Sequence record: NZ_CP014527.1
Strand: one strand, 5' to 3'
DNA: 64,000 nt
Origin: a plasmid
In this document: piece after piece, positions 1 through 15,000 of the stretch
Layout: each line of letters opens with the position of its first letter
Numbering within the stretch: position 1 is the stretch's first letter
Made by a program: the position numbers

Positions 1-3000
1 GCCGTATAGGTTCCCCCTCTCCTATAACCACTTCGTAGTCATCAGCAGCCTCCACATCACGATACAAGGCAATGACAGATCCAGCTTTCTCGCGCTGACT
101 GAGTGATACACGCCATGACTTCACGTCTTGCAGCTGTACCTCAAGGGTGGGAAGCGGCTGTCCCGTAACGGATATTCCACGTCCACGACGACAAACAATA
201 AGTGCGCCATCAGCCGGTTTGATGACAAGTCCCGTGTCACGGCCGAGCCGGGTCAGAAGATTGATGTCCGACTCATTGACCTGATCAATATGGGGGACCG
301 GGACCTCATCAATATCCGGCGCAATGGCAGCGCGCAGACCATGTTCGCCAGCAATTCTCTCGACAAGGGAGCTCAACCCTGTACCCAATGGCCAAGAGCG
401 TGTCTTCTGGGAATAGAGAGAATGCTTTCCCGTCGGTGTTGCTGTGTGTATCGCGGCTTTGGCCCGGATCAGAAGGCAGCCCGGGGGACCGGAAAGTTCC
501 ATCTCGTCAACAACAAAAAGCCCCATACGGAATAAAGATCCCGTATATCCAAGCCAGACTTCAAGTTCTGCCCCTGAGGCCGGCAAAAGAATGGGCTGGA
601 GCGGATCATGATCGGCCAGAACCAGCTCCAGGGTGTCACTCTGGAGTCCCGCCTCATCGGTCAAGGACAAACGGATCAAACGCTGACGAATAAGCGTTGT
701 AATGTCACTGCGGTTGGCAACAACACGAACATCGGGTCTGTATTTCAGCTCCACAGACGAATGCCTCCTGCAGAGACAGGCTCGCGGATGTCAGGCAGAT
801 AAACAGTCAGCCCTGCCGGCAAGACTGGACCCCGGTCGGCCAGTCCGGGGTTGGCATCCAGAAGCTGCTCCACACATCGTCCACGACGACGGTCGTAATA
901 TGTCCAGGCGATCAGATCAACGGTATCACCATCACATGTTTTGTACTGAAGAGTTGTCATCATATTTCCTGAGCTTGAGACTAAATGTCTGACGGCGCGC
1001 AACACCGGCACGAGTAAACGTGTCTTGCTGCTCTTCGATGTGTTCTATGACCCATTGTCCCAAAATCTGGCCCTGCCCATCCAGCAACAGCTGAGGCTTG
1101 CCTGTGGCCGCCTGTTCGCGCATGGCATCAAGCTGACTGGCCCCGGAAGCATGAGACCTAGCAAGGCCTTCTGCCGAAAAGCCGGTGCCGGGGGTACGGT
1201 GGGATACATGCTTGTGGGTCGGGAAAATCACGCCGTCCAGCGTAAGCGTGTCTTCACCAAGGCCGGCGAACTGCAAGGCCGCCGAACGGCCAATACGATC
1301 CTGGGTAGACCAACGGTATGCAACAGAGCGTCGAAGAGTTTGGTACGCCGCCGTACTGATACTGAATTGATAAGCACCAAGTTGCATCATGACATCAGAC
1401 ATTCTCAGGCCTCGTAAACCAGTGTGCTGTCATACAGCGCACCCCGGCTGCGCTGTTTCTGCCGACGTTCCATTTCATCAACAATATCCTGCGGATTATG
1501 ATGGGGCTGGGCATTGATCGTGATTGTGTTTGCGTTGGTAACATGATGGGTGGTGCTGGTTCTGGATGCGGCTGTTGCAGGAGCGACGCGCCCGATAGCG
1601 GCGACGGAGCGCTCAAGCTCTGCCGACTGGGAAGCCGGAGGCATAGCAGGGATAGAAGAAGGCAGTGGGGTTAGCTGTGAACCCGGTAACGGAGTATCCG
1701 GAAGAGTGGGTGGTACCTGCGTTGCAGTCTCACCAAACCCGAACAGAGTAAACACAGGGGCCAACACATCTGTCAGCCACTTGACCTTTTCCATGACCAG
1801 ACTGCAAATCGCATCCCACGCTGCGGCCGCACCATCGGACAACCCGGACCAGAGATCGGAAAAGAACGCGACGACAGGCTCCCAGTGAGCAATCAGCAAC
1901 CCCGCAGCCAAGGCGATAGCCGTGATAACAAGCCCCACAGGATTGGCCATCATGGCAATGCCAATCGCCCGAATACCCAAGGCCACAATATTCAGAACCG
2001 GGCCAAGCCCCATCAGGGTTGTTCCGATCACGCGCATGATACCCGTCAACACATTGAAGACCGGGCACACAAGGGTGCCAACTGCACGTAGCACCGCGCA
2101 TGCATCCGTAAACAGGCCAACAACCTTGGCCACCTCGCGAATGGTGGCTACCACTTCCATCAATGGACGGATCCAAGGCATCAGCATGGAGCCCAGTGCC
2201 ATGGCAAAAGCGTCAGCTTTGTTGATCAAGCGCTGAAAGCGGTTATCCAGCGTATCGAGATCAGCCCCTTGTAAAGACGCCACAGGGGTGACGGTAGCAA
2301 GCTGCTCTGTGCGGGCCTGGAGTTGACCGGCACCGGCAGAAGAAATCAAGGCCGACCCCGCCTTGAAAGTATCCGGGTCGGTGCCAAAAAGACGCCCGGT
2401 GAGCTGCTCCCGACCTGAGGTATCAAGGCCGGCCATAGCCTGGCCAAGATCGCCAAGCACATCGGGAACAGATCGCATCTGTCCGGACGCATCCCGCAAA
2501 CCGATATCCATTGCCTGCAACAAAGATGCAACATCGGAAGAAGGATCCGCCAGTCCAGAAATAACATGACCAAGAGCCAAGCCGGCTTTTTCGCCCTCCA
2601 GACTCGCTTCGGCCAACACACCTAGCATTGCAGTGACCTGTTCTAGGCTGGCACCGCCGGCAACTGCATCTGGGCCAACGGTTGCCAAGGCCTGGCCCAG
2701 CAAGGGAACAGCACGCGCCGAATCCCCTGCGGTTTGCACCAGCATGGTCGCCATGCGGGTCATGTCTGACGGGTCAACAGGCATACGGTTCTGGATTGTG
2801 GCAGACAGGGCCATTGCATCAGCGGGAACCATATTACCGGCCTGTGCCATCAGCAACGCCCCGGGCAACGAGGCAGCCGCCTGCCCTTCGACCATACCGG
2901 ATTGGCCCGCAGCATGCAGAGCCTGCCCGATCTGGACTGGGGACCACTCCCCGGAGCGGGCTGTATCAATGGCAAGGTCAGAGAGCCGCTGCGCACCCTC

Positions 3001-12000: not shown

Positions 12001-15000
12001 GAATGTCTTGCTCTTAGGATCGTGCTGGAGCAGCACACCTTATACCGGTTCTCATTGCTCGAACTGGAACAACACCCTGTTTAGCTCGTACAACTACGTC
12101 AGCGCCCGTGGCGTCTGTGCCCACCTGGTTCTTCTCTGACTTTCCCAACGGAGCGTTTTTACATGACCATCATCAATACCCGTGCCGATCTGGACGCTCT
12201 TAAGGGCACCCCGGCTCATGACGAATTTCTGCGTCTGCTGCGCGGCACCATGACCACCATGACCGACACCCAAACCTATCCCGAAGACTACGGCAAACCC
12301 GAATACGACAGGCCGAAACTGGACCCGGTCTGGGTCGAGGTCGAAACGCTGGAAACCATCACCCGCTTCGGCTTCACAAAAGAAGAGCTGATGCAGGAAA
12401 GCCCAGACATGGGTGGTGAGATCAGTGTGCAGAAAAGTCAGCAGGAAGGCTGATAGGAGGCCCTGCACGCACACCGAGACGTGTCCCTATCCAGCCAACA
12501 AACCCAACATCGTTGGATAAGGACACTATGCCTGTTCAGGACAATCTGGACCGCTGTTCCCGACGCCATCAGGAACAGCGGTTAGCTTTATGTCAAAACA
12601 TTACGAAAAAATAAAATCTGATGCAGATATAGAAGAGTCGTTCTCTAACGGGATTGAGAAATCGGGAGTATTGTCACCTGTAGCTTTAATACGCAAAAAC
12701 AGGTCTTTGCCAAGTAGCTCTGCCCAGACAGCGTTTCTGGCCGGTTCTGTGCTGCTGAAATGATGAACCAACAGGCCTTGGCTCAGATGAGATAGATCAA
12801 TTCGATCGCCCTCAGCGGCAGTACCTAGTGCTAATCTCCTATGATCGTACCAGAAGAAGAGCTTTTGTTATAAGTAGTGCATTCAGATTCTGCCTTAAAG
12901 ATAGGGGCCTGATTTCAAACGGCCATGATTCCTCCGGATCTGCGTGAGGTCGTCAAAGCTCTGTTTTACATCGCCAAGACTTTGGGTGCGTATTATCCAT
13001 CCATCTGGTGATGGAGCCTACTGGAGGGAAGAGAGGCAAATCCGGCAGTATATAATGCTATGATGCGGGCAAGAGAACCAAAGGGCGCAAGCGTCATATT
13101 ATCGTCGATAGCGGTTATGCAGACGACAAGGTGAGGCGGTGACTGAAGAAAATCAAGCGCACTGACAAGGGCAAGGTCTGGATCCTAGTTTTCTCGCCTG
13201 CTGGAGACCGGCCTGTACGACTATACGTCCAGGGCCCGGTCCCCGCGCGTATACGCATAAAGGCTGGTCGCCAGCAGGCGGGACTGCTCCTCCACATACC
13301 CGCGGCCACGGTCAACACGCGCCTGAAGCGTTGCGTAGGCGGGGTCGTCGTCCTCACCCCCGTGGCCGCATGGCGCAGATACAGCGCCGCATCTTCCAGA
13401 CGTTCCTTCTCGTCCTCGCTGGCCCCTTCACCAAGTTCCGCCAGAACACGCGCCTGATCCGGGTGCAGTTCGCGGTTGTTGGCGCGGGCGAGGCTGGCGA
13501 TGCGGGCGGCGGCCTCGACCTCTTTGGCGGAGGCCCCGGTCAGCATGGTGGCGGCGGCACCGGCCAGCCCGGCCAGCTGGACCCTCACCCAGGCATTGTC
13601 GGACAGACGTCAAGGACCGGGCTGGCCAGTTCCTGCAGGCCCGCCCCGACCGCACCGGCTAGGCACGACCCGCTGGTTGCCGCCCCGATGCCGCAGCCGG
13701 CAGCCGCGTGCACCAGAACCTTGCGCACGTCGCCGTCGCTGATCCCGAATTCAACCCCCAGATCCCCGATGCCCTGGAACACCTGCGCCGACACAACGTT
13801 GACCGCACCGGTCACCAGCGCCGAACGGGCCGCAGTGTCCAGACCTTCTCCGTTGACAGCCATATCCACAACGGCCAGCACACCGGTGTTGATCGCGGCC
13901 TGCGCCACTGTCTGCCCCAGTCCGGCCAGATGCCCTGCCGCACTGGCAACGCCTGCCCCGGCTGCGGTAGCACCGGTGGTTGCCGCTGTGGCTCCGGCTG
14001 CGGCCGTGGTGGTGGTTGCAGCCGTCGCCCCGGCTGTTGTTGTCGCGGCGGTGGCCCCGGTACTGGCTGTTGACCCGGCTTCGGTGCCGGCTCTGGTTAT
14101 GCCGCCGTCAAACCCCAGGCCATCACTGACCCCCTGGGTCAGGCCGGCCGTCAGGGCACTGACCACCAGGGACCGCAGGGTGTTGCTGGAAACAATGGAA
14201 CGCAGCGCACCCTGCATGTCACCGGACACCGCGCCGTTGGCAACAGAGGTCGAGACAGTCCCCGCAACACCGGCCAGGACGGCGTTTGTCATGGTCATGG
14301 CTGTCAGCTGGGCCGCTGTTCCGGCATAGGTGGCACCGGCCATCGACATGGTGGCCATGCCAGCCGACACCGACGTGCCGGCTGGCACTTCGGCAACACC
14401 GACGATATTGGCAGCCAGGCTGGCCGTGGCCCCGGCAGTCAGAACAGCGGTGGCAAGGGCAATCAGGGCCATGGTCCCGCCACCTATGCCGCTTTTCTGG
14501 TCATGCCAGCTGCGGTAGGTCTCTTCCACGCCCTTCCAGTCAACCCCCGGCAGGGTCCGGAGCGTTGCCAGATAACCAAGGCCGGGGGCCTGTGAAAGCT
14601 GGTCAAGGTCGGTCGCCAGGTCGCCGGTCGCACGGTATTCGACCACGATACCGCCCGGGCTTTCGATCACAAAGTCACCGCCGGACTCCAGAAGGGCGTG
14701 CCGGACCACCTCCCGTTCGTGGCCACGTTCTGTCATCGTCCACTTCAGGCCACCGTCCCGGTGTTCCGAAACCGACAGGACATCGCGTTCCGTGTCCGAG
14801 AGAAGGTGCAGCCTGGCATCCGGGGCCGCAAAGCGACCCTTCCCGACCCGCAGGGTCAGGGTGCCACCGGCGGAAACACGACTGGCGCGGATGGTGGTGT
14901 CGGATCCGGACTCCGTCGTCAGATCCGCAACAGAGCTGACATCAGAGCCTTTTATGCCGGTAAAGGCATGCTGCTCCGTACGGAAGCCACGTCCCCCCAG

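Follow-up and report, generated by a model that had tools for sequence, protein, structure and literature searches.

Positions 1 to 12453 of a 64,000-nucleotide stretch of a plasmid from Haematospirillum jordaniae (sequence record NZ_CP014527.1; the whole stretch is called the window, and positions refer to it unless another locus is named) carry genes for a P2-like contractile tail together with a regulator and lysis genes. Our analysis indicates that this is probably a domesticated, selection-maintained tailocin-type cluster of Haematospirillum, of the R type (P2/R2-pyocin-like), with a dead fibre gene in H. jordaniae. An earlier note on this DNA had left the choice between a tailocin-like particle and a decaying prophage. 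The intact genes and the purifying selection described below favour the former, and the latter fits much less well. A tailocin-like cluster in itself is unsurprising to a specialist; the interest is in the long-kept split of the cluster, the loss of the fibre under constraint and a possible inversion structure.

H. jordaniae, a human pathogen associated with freshwater, was recognised only recently, and hardly any of its molecular biology has been described. The titles found in the literature that name the genus were case reports or short notes, and no report of a tailocin or phage in Haematospirillum was found among 15 of the 23 papers mentioning the genus. A tail cluster under selection across the genus would be the first candidate for a strain-competition weapon in this group, and would add an alphaproteobacterial example to the R-type tailocins.

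Genes were identified by profile searches with Pfam and PHROGs, by a profile search of the PDB and from the precomputed Pfam annotation of identical loci. Positions 92-20988 of the window are 100% identical to a contig of H. jordaniae GCA_012102845.1. The genomes used for comparison were the sister species Haematospirillum sp. H1815 and H4485, strain 15-248, and a distant lineage represented by metagenome assemblies only (L024). Other tail loci were compared as well (L006, L007, L010, L023, L034 from a metagenome, L040 from GCA_012102655.1, and the partial loci L028 and L029 from H. jordaniae). No match was obtained by megablast of 1-12500 against phage and plasmid collections, and metagenome scans with the I protein and with a DNA pattern of the fibre 5' end gave no relatives. 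The exact tube protein was not on record when looked up, the gene call of this strain being different. The genus also has a second P2-like tail cluster, which belongs to phage (L028/L029, L034 and L040). L040 is a complete prophage with portal, protease-capsid fusion, a 567-amino-acid (aa) fibre carrying an mtd_2nd domain, and integrase.

The cluster consists of two halves on opposite strands (Table 1). The earlier note had listed, on one strand, genes for D, X, U, the tape measure, E, tube and sheath, and on the other a Mor-like regulator, an M15 endolysin, a holin-like gene, spike V, a PAAR-like protein, the baseplate proteins W, J and I and a remnant of the fibre. All of them were found at their places, the first set on the minus and the second on the plus strand, by Pfam and PHROGs and in the precomputed Pfam annotation. 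Its view that these genes form a complete tail-plus-lysis set with the architecture of an R-type tailocin was supported, as gene content and order match those of R2 pyocin. The profile comparison with R-type pyocin and P2 families that it had proposed gave R2-pyocin proteins as the best solved relatives of the sheath, J and collar.

In the minus-strand half, the sheath had R2-pyocin PA0622 as its best solved relative (E 3e-101). The extracellular contractile injection system/Photorhabdus virulence cassette type and the type VI secretion system were rejected as identities: the Afp/Pvc sheaths were distant (E ~1e-12, versus 3e-101 for the pyocin), and the baseplate genes were of P2 type. The slippery heptamer between E and E' is in the canonical X_XXY_YYZ phase, and the -1 frame (...ALASHTGWSWSEIGSMPTSTFLWWIEGL...) stays open as far as a stop at 3314. 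This frame contains a GpE-like motif, and related phages have a Phage_P2_GpE open reading frame (ORF) at the same position. Judged by these features, the programmed -1 frameshift is preserved. The tape measure gene was called at 568, 606 or 679 aa depending on the caller; between species it showed in-frame length differences only, with a ratio of nonsynonymous to synonymous substitution rates (dN/dS) of 0.13-0.17. X is placed between U and D, as it is in R2 pyocin; five H. jordaniae assemblies have its 72-aa product recorded in identical form. The 3' end of D is located ~254 nucleotides (nt) left of position 1. The fragment in the window gave a weak Pfam Phage_GPD match, and the full 335-aa product carries PF05954 in identical loci. 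The D orthologues of H1815 and H4485 are 92-94% identical, with a dN/dS of 0.10-0.14.

In the plus-strand half, Pfam detected only a C-terminal helix-turn-helix in the activator (HTH_38, residues 87-117). In the translated endolysin, the metal-site H-x6-D and a downstream H were readable. The product of the next gene matched only PHROGs families of unknown function and is a putative holin by its topology and its position beside the endolysin gene only. The collar protein matched the PDB entry 6u5f_A (Collar PA0615) with an E value of 2e-4 when a 6-sequence profile was used and 2.4e-30 with a 40-sequence family profile; it has an extra C-terminal stretch of ~80 aa. In prophage L040, the homologue has 180 aa and is directly upstream of V. 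The Y07E-domain protein had no match in a separate Pfam search or in the PDB. J had R2-pyocin PA0618 as its best solved relative (E 9e-77). I aligned over its full length without gaps with its counterparts in H1815 and the L024 lineage, and its C-terminal extension is kept in these relatives. Truncated forms of the tape measure, endolysin and activator in some assemblies were rejected as real; the DNA was identical or had substitutions only, so that they reflect differences between gene callers.

Head genes were looked for on both sides of the cluster. The earlier note had held that portal, terminase and capsid genes immediately upstream of position 1 would make this an ordinary prophage. When 10 kb was fetched leftward in five H. 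jordaniae assemblies with the help of the exact X protein, no portal, terminase or capsid gene was found. In all five, one of which is identical to the window over 92-20988, D is followed on its left by ~850 bp of non-coding DNA, two ABC-transporter genes and a nonribosomal peptide synthetase (NRPS) gene, and the same ABC-transporter/NRPS flank is present in H4485, H1815 and strain 15-248. The right flank in the window is a two-partner secretion system resembling those of contact-dependent inhibition (CDI-like). No replication, integration, head or packaging genes were found in or next to the cluster. The flanks being free of head and packaging genes, the cluster is not an ordinary prophage. 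Nor does it look like an intact or recently defective P2-like prophage, as neither head genes nor integrase were found on either side, here or in the sister species. In the complete prophage L040, by comparison, portal, protease-capsid and head-tail genes take the place of the regulator and lysis genes, and the integrase follows D. As the earlier note had said, the capsid gene in the window is an isolated frameshifted remnant 30 kb away. It consists of two ORFs at 41901-43009, which match positions 378-620 and 243-331 of a 626-aa protease-capsid family; there were no other head or packaging genes among the ORFs of at least 130 aa picked from the window as likely genes.

Directly upstream of the activator gene, H1815 and the distant lineage have an Xre/RES toxin-antitoxin pair and a major facilitator superfamily (MFS) transporter gene. 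The activator-to-baseplate half is 92% identical at the nt level in H1815 and 71% in the distant lineage, where J is 83% identical at the aa level. Because both have the MFS and toxin-antitoxin genes before the activator, the headless left boundary is older than these lineages.

Next, the selective constraint on the cluster was examined. From FI to D, the comparison of H. jordaniae with H4485 and H1815 revealed zero stops and zero frameshifts. The dN/dS value was ~0.02 for FI and FII and 0.09-0.45 for the other genes (0.45 for X), with an overall value of 0.12 versus H4485. For the ten genes from the activator to I, dN/dS versus H1815 was 0.07-0.23 (overall, 0.16; activator, 0.17), and all ten were full length in the distant lineage, where dS is saturated. 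The flanking ABC-transporter genes had a dS of 0.24-0.39 and a dN/dS of 0.10-0.17, and D had 0.26-0.35 and 0.11-0.14, respectively. Therefore, the tail genes behave as ordinary vertically inherited host genes, with dN/dS equal to that of the flanking host genes. Within the species, two H. jordaniae strain groups differed across the cluster by 22 synonymous and 12 nonsynonymous substitutions, when ~75% nonsynonymous would be expected under neutrality (P ~1e-6). Several species have intact copies of every gene of the two halves except the fibre gene. Together with the flanks shared by several species, these substitution patterns showed the cluster to be vertically inherited and under purifying selection in several species. 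It thus has a full tail set, a linked endolysin and regulator, headless flanks and purifying selection, as an R-type tailocin should.

The two halves are parted by a mobile element. The IS5-family element that the earlier note had placed between the sheath and the regulator is present (IS-A), with its domains spread over three reading frames and a DDE_Tnp_1 match covering profile positions 53-192 only. Only imperfect terminal repeats could be made out, and it was never called as a gene in any assembly. By these domains IS-A belongs to the IS5 family of insertion sequences (IS), and the element itself is decayed rather than intact. Homology with H4485 ends at 5593 and homology with H1815 begins at 6475; the H1815 counterpart of 6475 onward sits after the MFS transporter gene. 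The sheath-side breakpoint, ~130 bp upstream of FI, is common to three species. In H. jordaniae (position 5593) it abuts the IS5-family element, and in H4485 and 15-248 (L002 ~4930-5152; L032, L033) it abuts the 3' remnant of a Tn3-family transposase gene (...LSPLGWEHHINLTGDYLW). Therefore, the split of the halves predates these species.

The other side of the ancestral junction is found at the far end of the plus-strand half, in orf96, a small conserved gene at the position of a fibre chaperone. It is ~89% identical over the aligned 85 residues to a 101-aa gene between H and FI in L034, and aligns to an 89-aa gene at the same fibre-sheath position in L040. Its homology to the intact counterpart is lost at 12418, directly after ...GGGTGGTG, and its reading frame is open despite the replaced C terminus. 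The missing 3' end of orf96 persists, decayed, within 100 nt upstream of the sheath gene, so that a single cut inside orf96 parted the halves. As judged by the shared breakpoint and this displaced 3' end, mobile elements were shown to have cut the ancestral fibre-chaperone-sheath junction before the species diverged. A collinear order, W-J-I-H-(small gene)-FI..D, was found in L006, L007, L010, L023, L034 and L040, which belong to other families. Relative to this order the H. jordaniae halves are inverted; they lie head to head, facing away from each other across the IS. The earlier note had suggested that the cluster may be a recently inactivated tailocin or prophage tail region. The split, however, is not recent, its breakpoint being shared by three species; only the fibre deletion and the head-to-head arrangement have so far been seen in H. 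jordaniae alone. A natural experiment is offered here, in which selection kept the cluster after a mobile-element split and, in one species, after fibre loss.

At 13040-13120, in the interval separating the tail cluster from the secretion locus, a very weak DDE transposase fragment (...YDAGKRTKGRKRHIIVDSG..., E 0.07) was noticed; it was possibly left by an element that took part in the rearrangement. A clean inversion between two IS copies was considered and left unsupported, the fragment near 13.05-13.12 kb being too weak (E 0.07).

Each half appears to have kept its own control element. The exact 11-mer CCGCCAGGGGA occurs only twice in the 64 kb, each time on the coding strand of its gene, upstream of FI and of W (Table 1). 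A consensus, GAAAAA-CCGCCAGRGGAA, is present at both positions in H1815, in the distant lineage, in a Rhodobacteraceae genome and in Saccharospirillaceae contigs, and stands ~35-80 nt upstream of the W and FI starts across distant P2-like tail modules. We propose GAAAAA-CCGCCAGRGGAA as a candidate late-promoter or activator site of this tail lineage; by the presence of this motif upstream of W and FI, both halves retain a putative control element of their own. A motif common to both tail operons in distant bacteria provides a testable handle on late-gene control in a widespread P2-like tail lineage.

The fibre gene of the cluster is collapsed (H'), as the earlier note had said, with its N- and C-terminal pieces in different frames. 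The N-terminal part is in frame 0, with a stop at 11886-11888; it matches the fibre N termini of L007, L006 and L023 and weakly PF12571. The C-terminal part is in frame 2, from ~11831-11849, and matches positions 310-392 of the 393 of phrog_11262. At the nt level, it shows 79-81% identity to the final ~100 codons of the intact fibre genes of L034 (>308 aa) and L040 (567 aa). A 1-nt frameshift as the lesion was rejected: because 'TGLQAKYTSKW' aligns with the start of the C-terminal ~100 residues of intact fibres, the lesion is a large internal deletion, in which at least 60% of the gene has gone. A word-index search with a frameshift-corrected fibre remnant found no homologues; the fibre was resolved by the comparison with L034 and L040. 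The remnant did not behave as the target of a diversity-generating retroelement either: a second copy of the H' 3' region, as a template repeat, was found neither in the window nor in L040; the related fibre has an mtd_2nd domain, and the remnant ends in ...ARGVCAHLVLL. A functional fibre, which an R-type tailocin requires, is thus missing from the cluster in all H. jordaniae assemblies examined, where ~45 and 100 codons are left, out of frame with each other.

If the cluster works as R pyocins do, expression of the lysis genes and of both tail operons would be turned on by the Mor-like activator. The collar, V with the PAAR protein, W/J/I, D/U/X, tape measure, E/E', tube and sheath would then assemble into a DNA-free contractile particle, and the holin-like protein and M15 endolysin would lyse the producer cell and release it. 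As encoded, the cell probably still builds and releases sheathed tails. Without a fibre encoded at another place in the genome, tails from H. jordaniae would presumably be unable to target other cells. The selection seen within H. jordaniae may mean that a fibre is borrowed, that the particle has another use, or that the fibre loss is too recent to show. The question raised is what role a fibreless particle has, or which fibre is borrowed.

Several points weigh against a tailocin. Its function is deduced from sequence only. The 'holin' and 'Mor-like' labels come from PHROGs matches or topology and not from curated family thresholds, and the AlphaFold model of the collar was unusable (mean predicted local distance difference test score, 39), so that this protein was identified by a profile-to-PDB sequence search instead. 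The sole fibre gene of the cluster is a pseudogene, with the same lesion in every H. jordaniae assembly examined. In every species with an assembled junction, the halves are parted by mobile-element remnants, so that their coordinated expression cannot be taken for granted. Pseudogenes and remains of mobile elements abound in the surrounding replicon (the split ShlB, RepA/ParA fragments, the capsid remnant and a second decayed IS), which makes local decay plausible. Finally, FI plus FII are 91.5% identical in nt to the sheath and tube genes of the second, prophage-type cluster in the same genome, with the similarity beginning exactly at the first codon of FI. Gene conversion with the resident prophage genes may therefore be part of the reason why dN/dS is so low for FI and FII. 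The other genes are unaffected by this caveat, being only 66-74% identical to that cluster.

An inert remnant of a P2-like prophage, with the head genes deleted and the rest drifting to loss without a present function, would account for the IS5-family and Tn3-family debris at the junction, the mutual inversion of the halves, the destroyed fibre gene, and the nearby pseudogenes with their unrelated capsid remnant. It is nevertheless unlikely. Drift would hardly leave all genes but the fibre undamaged in several species, and also in a lineage whose dS is saturated, hold dN/dS at the level of flanking host genes, bias within-species polymorphism against amino acid changes (P ~1e-6) and preserve both the frameshift site and the -1 ORF. 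Moreover, the headless left boundary is common to lineages only 71% identical in nt.

Compared with a domesticated tailocin that has lost its fibre, a tailocin still working in H. jordaniae with a fibre encoded elsewhere, in the resident prophage-type cluster or as a second fibre gene like that beside the toxin-antitoxin genes of H1815, also seems improbable to us. Purifying selection within the species, though both strain groups have the collapsed fibre, would be explained in this way, and the genome does have a second P2-like tail cluster, relatives of which encode the intact 567-aa fibre. However, the N terminus of the prophage fibre (MSAPHYYTLVTDAGH...) is unlike that of H' (MSSTRIIITDAGRR...), so its attachment to the baseplate is not assured. 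As for a second fibre gene, H. jordaniae k-mer assemblies break ~16 codons into H', which implies another copy of the fibre 5' end in the genome, and a second fibre start sharing codons 6-15 is present in H1815 and the L024 lineage. No second fibre gene was found in the window, and the within-species substitutions on which the argument draws are few (34) and clustered.

In both H1815 and the distant lineage, the 8.1-kb contig that carries the baseplate half has an identical 30-nt sequence at its two ends, one copy being inverted relative to the other. These ends encode fibre codons 6-15, each with its own start codon, and the segment between them contains toxin-antitoxin, MFS, regulator, lysis and baseplate genes. 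The inverted ends could be two outward-facing fibre genes or mark an invertible segment. It is conceivable, if rather far-fetched, that they act as a fibre switch, in which flipping of the 8.1-kb segment puts another fibre body behind the baseplate operon, and of which the head-to-head halves and wrecked fibre gene of H. jordaniae would be a fossil. If true, this would be a tailocin, with a PAAR and a Y07E protein, that alters its target range by operon inversion and not at the fibre tip.

A tail module shared with or donated to another mobile element, such as a head-only satellite or the resident prophage, is very improbable. In its favour, FI and FII exchanged sequence with the prophage-type cluster, and a CRISPR spacer in the window matches the prophage type, which implies that phages of this kind are active in the species. 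Against it, the prophage type already encodes a full tail, the analysis turned up no head-only element, and the cluster has its own regulator and lysis cassette.

Other features of the window are included in Table 1. The products of J and the sheath gene are recorded on a 303 kb contig, so the window may lie on a megaplasmid or chromid. In the two-partner secretion locus, the transporter is split in the gene calls into 361 aa and a 138-aa piece; the two-partner secretion/haemagglutinin-repeat/DUF637 protein has 1825 aa (1947 aa in other strains), and a 157-aa gene occupies the immunity position. The first CRISPR spacer (23213-23241) matches at 26 of 27 nt a 169-aa gene upstream of the prophage-type sheath in another H. 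jordaniae strain (L028 165-191); the copy that the window's own strain has (L029) is diverged and gave no match. Two of the RTX-repeat proteins have a serralysin-type C-terminal domain, and the five account for the GC-rich skewed stretches and the 27-nt periodic repeats. The plasmid-like debris comprises fragments of RepA (profile positions 96-228 of 228) and of ParA, together with a ParA-like ATPase, which is intact, and a large serine recombinase. A second IS5-family element, at 59.5-60.3 kb, is internally deleted and 93-94% identical to the IS upstream of the H4485 sheath region.

Table 1. Features of the tail cluster, its control sites and the rest of the window (window positions unless a locus is named)
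Feature	Position	Strand	Evidence or remarks
D, gpD-like baseplate hub	1-754	-	first 251 of 335 codons; gene cut by window start
X, tail protein, LysM-like	745-963	-	PF05489, E 1.9e-20
U, gpU-like tail protein	932-1402	-	PF06995, E 2.9e-36
Tape measure	1405-3225	-	PF10145, E 2.4e-28; 606-aa call, ORF open further upstream
E' extension	3314-3460	-	-1 frameshift; slippery heptamer G_GGT_TTT at 3460-3454; 46-codon open -1 frame
E, tail assembly chaperone	3445-3696	-	PF10109, E 2.7e-21
FII, tail tube	3777-4283	-	PF04985, E 1.6e-56
FI, tail sheath, 392 aa	4283-5461	-	three sheath Pfam domains
Sheath upstream region	5462-5593	-	motif CCGCCAGGGGA at 5531-5541; decayed 3' end of ancestral orf96-like gene
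Motif copy 1, CCGCCAGGGGA	5531-5541	-	70 nt upstream of FI
IS-A, decayed IS5-family element	~5594-6474	+	DUF4096 (E 2.4e-22) and DDE_Tnp_1 (E 1e-18)
Activator upstream region, AT-rich, native	6475-6648	+	part of the 92%-identical H1815 alignment starting at 6475
Late activator, Mor/C-like, 126 aa	6649-7029	+	phrog_836 'late transcriptional activator', E 5e-21
Peptidase_M15_3 endolysin	7016-7426	+	PF08291, E 1.4e-14; phrog_894 endolysin, E 1.7e-23
Holin-like protein, 107 aa	7430-7753	+	two hydrophobic segments, charged C terminus
Collar/tail terminator, 232 aa	7750-8448	+	homologue of R2-pyocin PA0615; phrog_1072
V, baseplate spike, 160 aa	8445-8927	+	PF04717, E 2.6e-7; phrog_9992, E 2.4e-20
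Phage_T4_Y07E-domain protein	8914-9432	+	PF26906 (precomputed annotation); phrog_1168
PAAR-motif protein, spike tip	9407-9694	+	PF05488, E 2.2e-14
Motif copy 2, CCGCCAGGGGA	9711-9721	+	33 nt upstream of W start codon
W, baseplate wedge, gp25-like	9754-10092	+	PF04965, E 4.5e-15; phrog_43, E 1.7e-40
J, baseplate, 298 aa	10092-10988	+	PF04865, E 5.9e-29
I, baseplate, 232 aa	10981-11679	+	PF09684, E 1.1e-46
H', collapsed tail fibre	11712-12139	+	~45 N-terminal codons joined out of frame to last ~100 codons
orf96, small conserved gene at fibre-chaperone position	12163-12453	+	last ~12 codons replaced at breakpoint 12418
Further motif sites	L031 6042; L024 6174; L007 1101, 5140; L006 143; L002 5205		
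Inverted fibre-5' ends	L030 1-46, 8072-8117; L024 1-46, 8176-8221		
Two-partner secretion (CDI-like) locus	13115-20866	-	ShlB/FhaC-type transporter, two-partner secretion protein, 157-aa gene
Type II-C CRISPR-Cas9 locus	23177-23605, 24021-24932, 24992-28354		7 repeats, Cas1 and Cas9, respectively
Plasmid-like debris	22488-23063, 28926-29336, 36840-37520, 38265-40016		
Five large RTX-repeat proteins	29804-36513 and 43407-48459		1155, 478, 415, 446, 1268 aa
Repeated non-coding element, ~185-430 nt	21354-21785, 40500-40684, 52779-53235		three copies, 68-95% identity
Type III restriction-modification pair and Abi_C-domain protein	53959-60125		Mod 716 aa, Res 864 aa

The closest known system is the R2 pyocin of Pseudomonas aeruginosa (PA0614-PA0629; 6u5f, 6u5b, 3j9q), likewise a headless P2-type contractile tail with its own lysis genes. 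The order collar-V-W-J-I-H-chaperone-FI-FII-E-T-U-X-D is the same, with the regulator and lysis genes directly upstream of the collar here. R2 pyocin is regulated by PrtN/PrtR. The Haematospirillum cluster differs in having a Mor/C-like activator, an M15 endolysin, a collar with an extra ~80-aa C terminus, and a short spike (160 aa) followed by the Y07E-domain and PAAR proteins. It also differs in being split and inverted by mobile elements, in its fibre pseudogene and in its alphaproteobacterial host (Rhodospirillales).

The Haematospirillum prophage L040 (and in part L028/L029 and L034) has the same collar-to-D order and a sheath and tube ~91% identical in nt; in L040 and L034 a homologue of orf96 lies between the fibre and sheath genes, and the fibre C terminus is homologous to that of the H' remnant. 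Unlike the cluster, this prophage carries genes for portal, protease-capsid and head-tail proteins ahead of the collar gene; D is followed by an integrase gene in L040, and L028, L029 and L034 contain replication genes. Identity in nt to the window's copies is only 66-74% for E, T, U, X, D, W and J, and in L040 V has 223 aa and there are no Y07E or PAAR genes and no regulator-lysis cassette upstream of the collar.

With phage P2 (Peduoviridae), the cluster shares the V, W, J, I, H, FI, FII, E/E' (with the -1 frameshift), T, U and D families and the presence of two tail operons, each with its own upstream element. However, it is without the head genes Q, P, O, N, M and L and without integrase. 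In the P2-like prophage L023, X is in the lysis region and the tail-completion genes R and S are present, whereas here X stands between U and D, and the place of R and S is occupied by a collar of the PA0615 type. Carotovoricin, xenorhabdicin and rhizoviticin (Rhizobium vitis) are other domesticated contractile tails with lysis genes that serve in strain competition.

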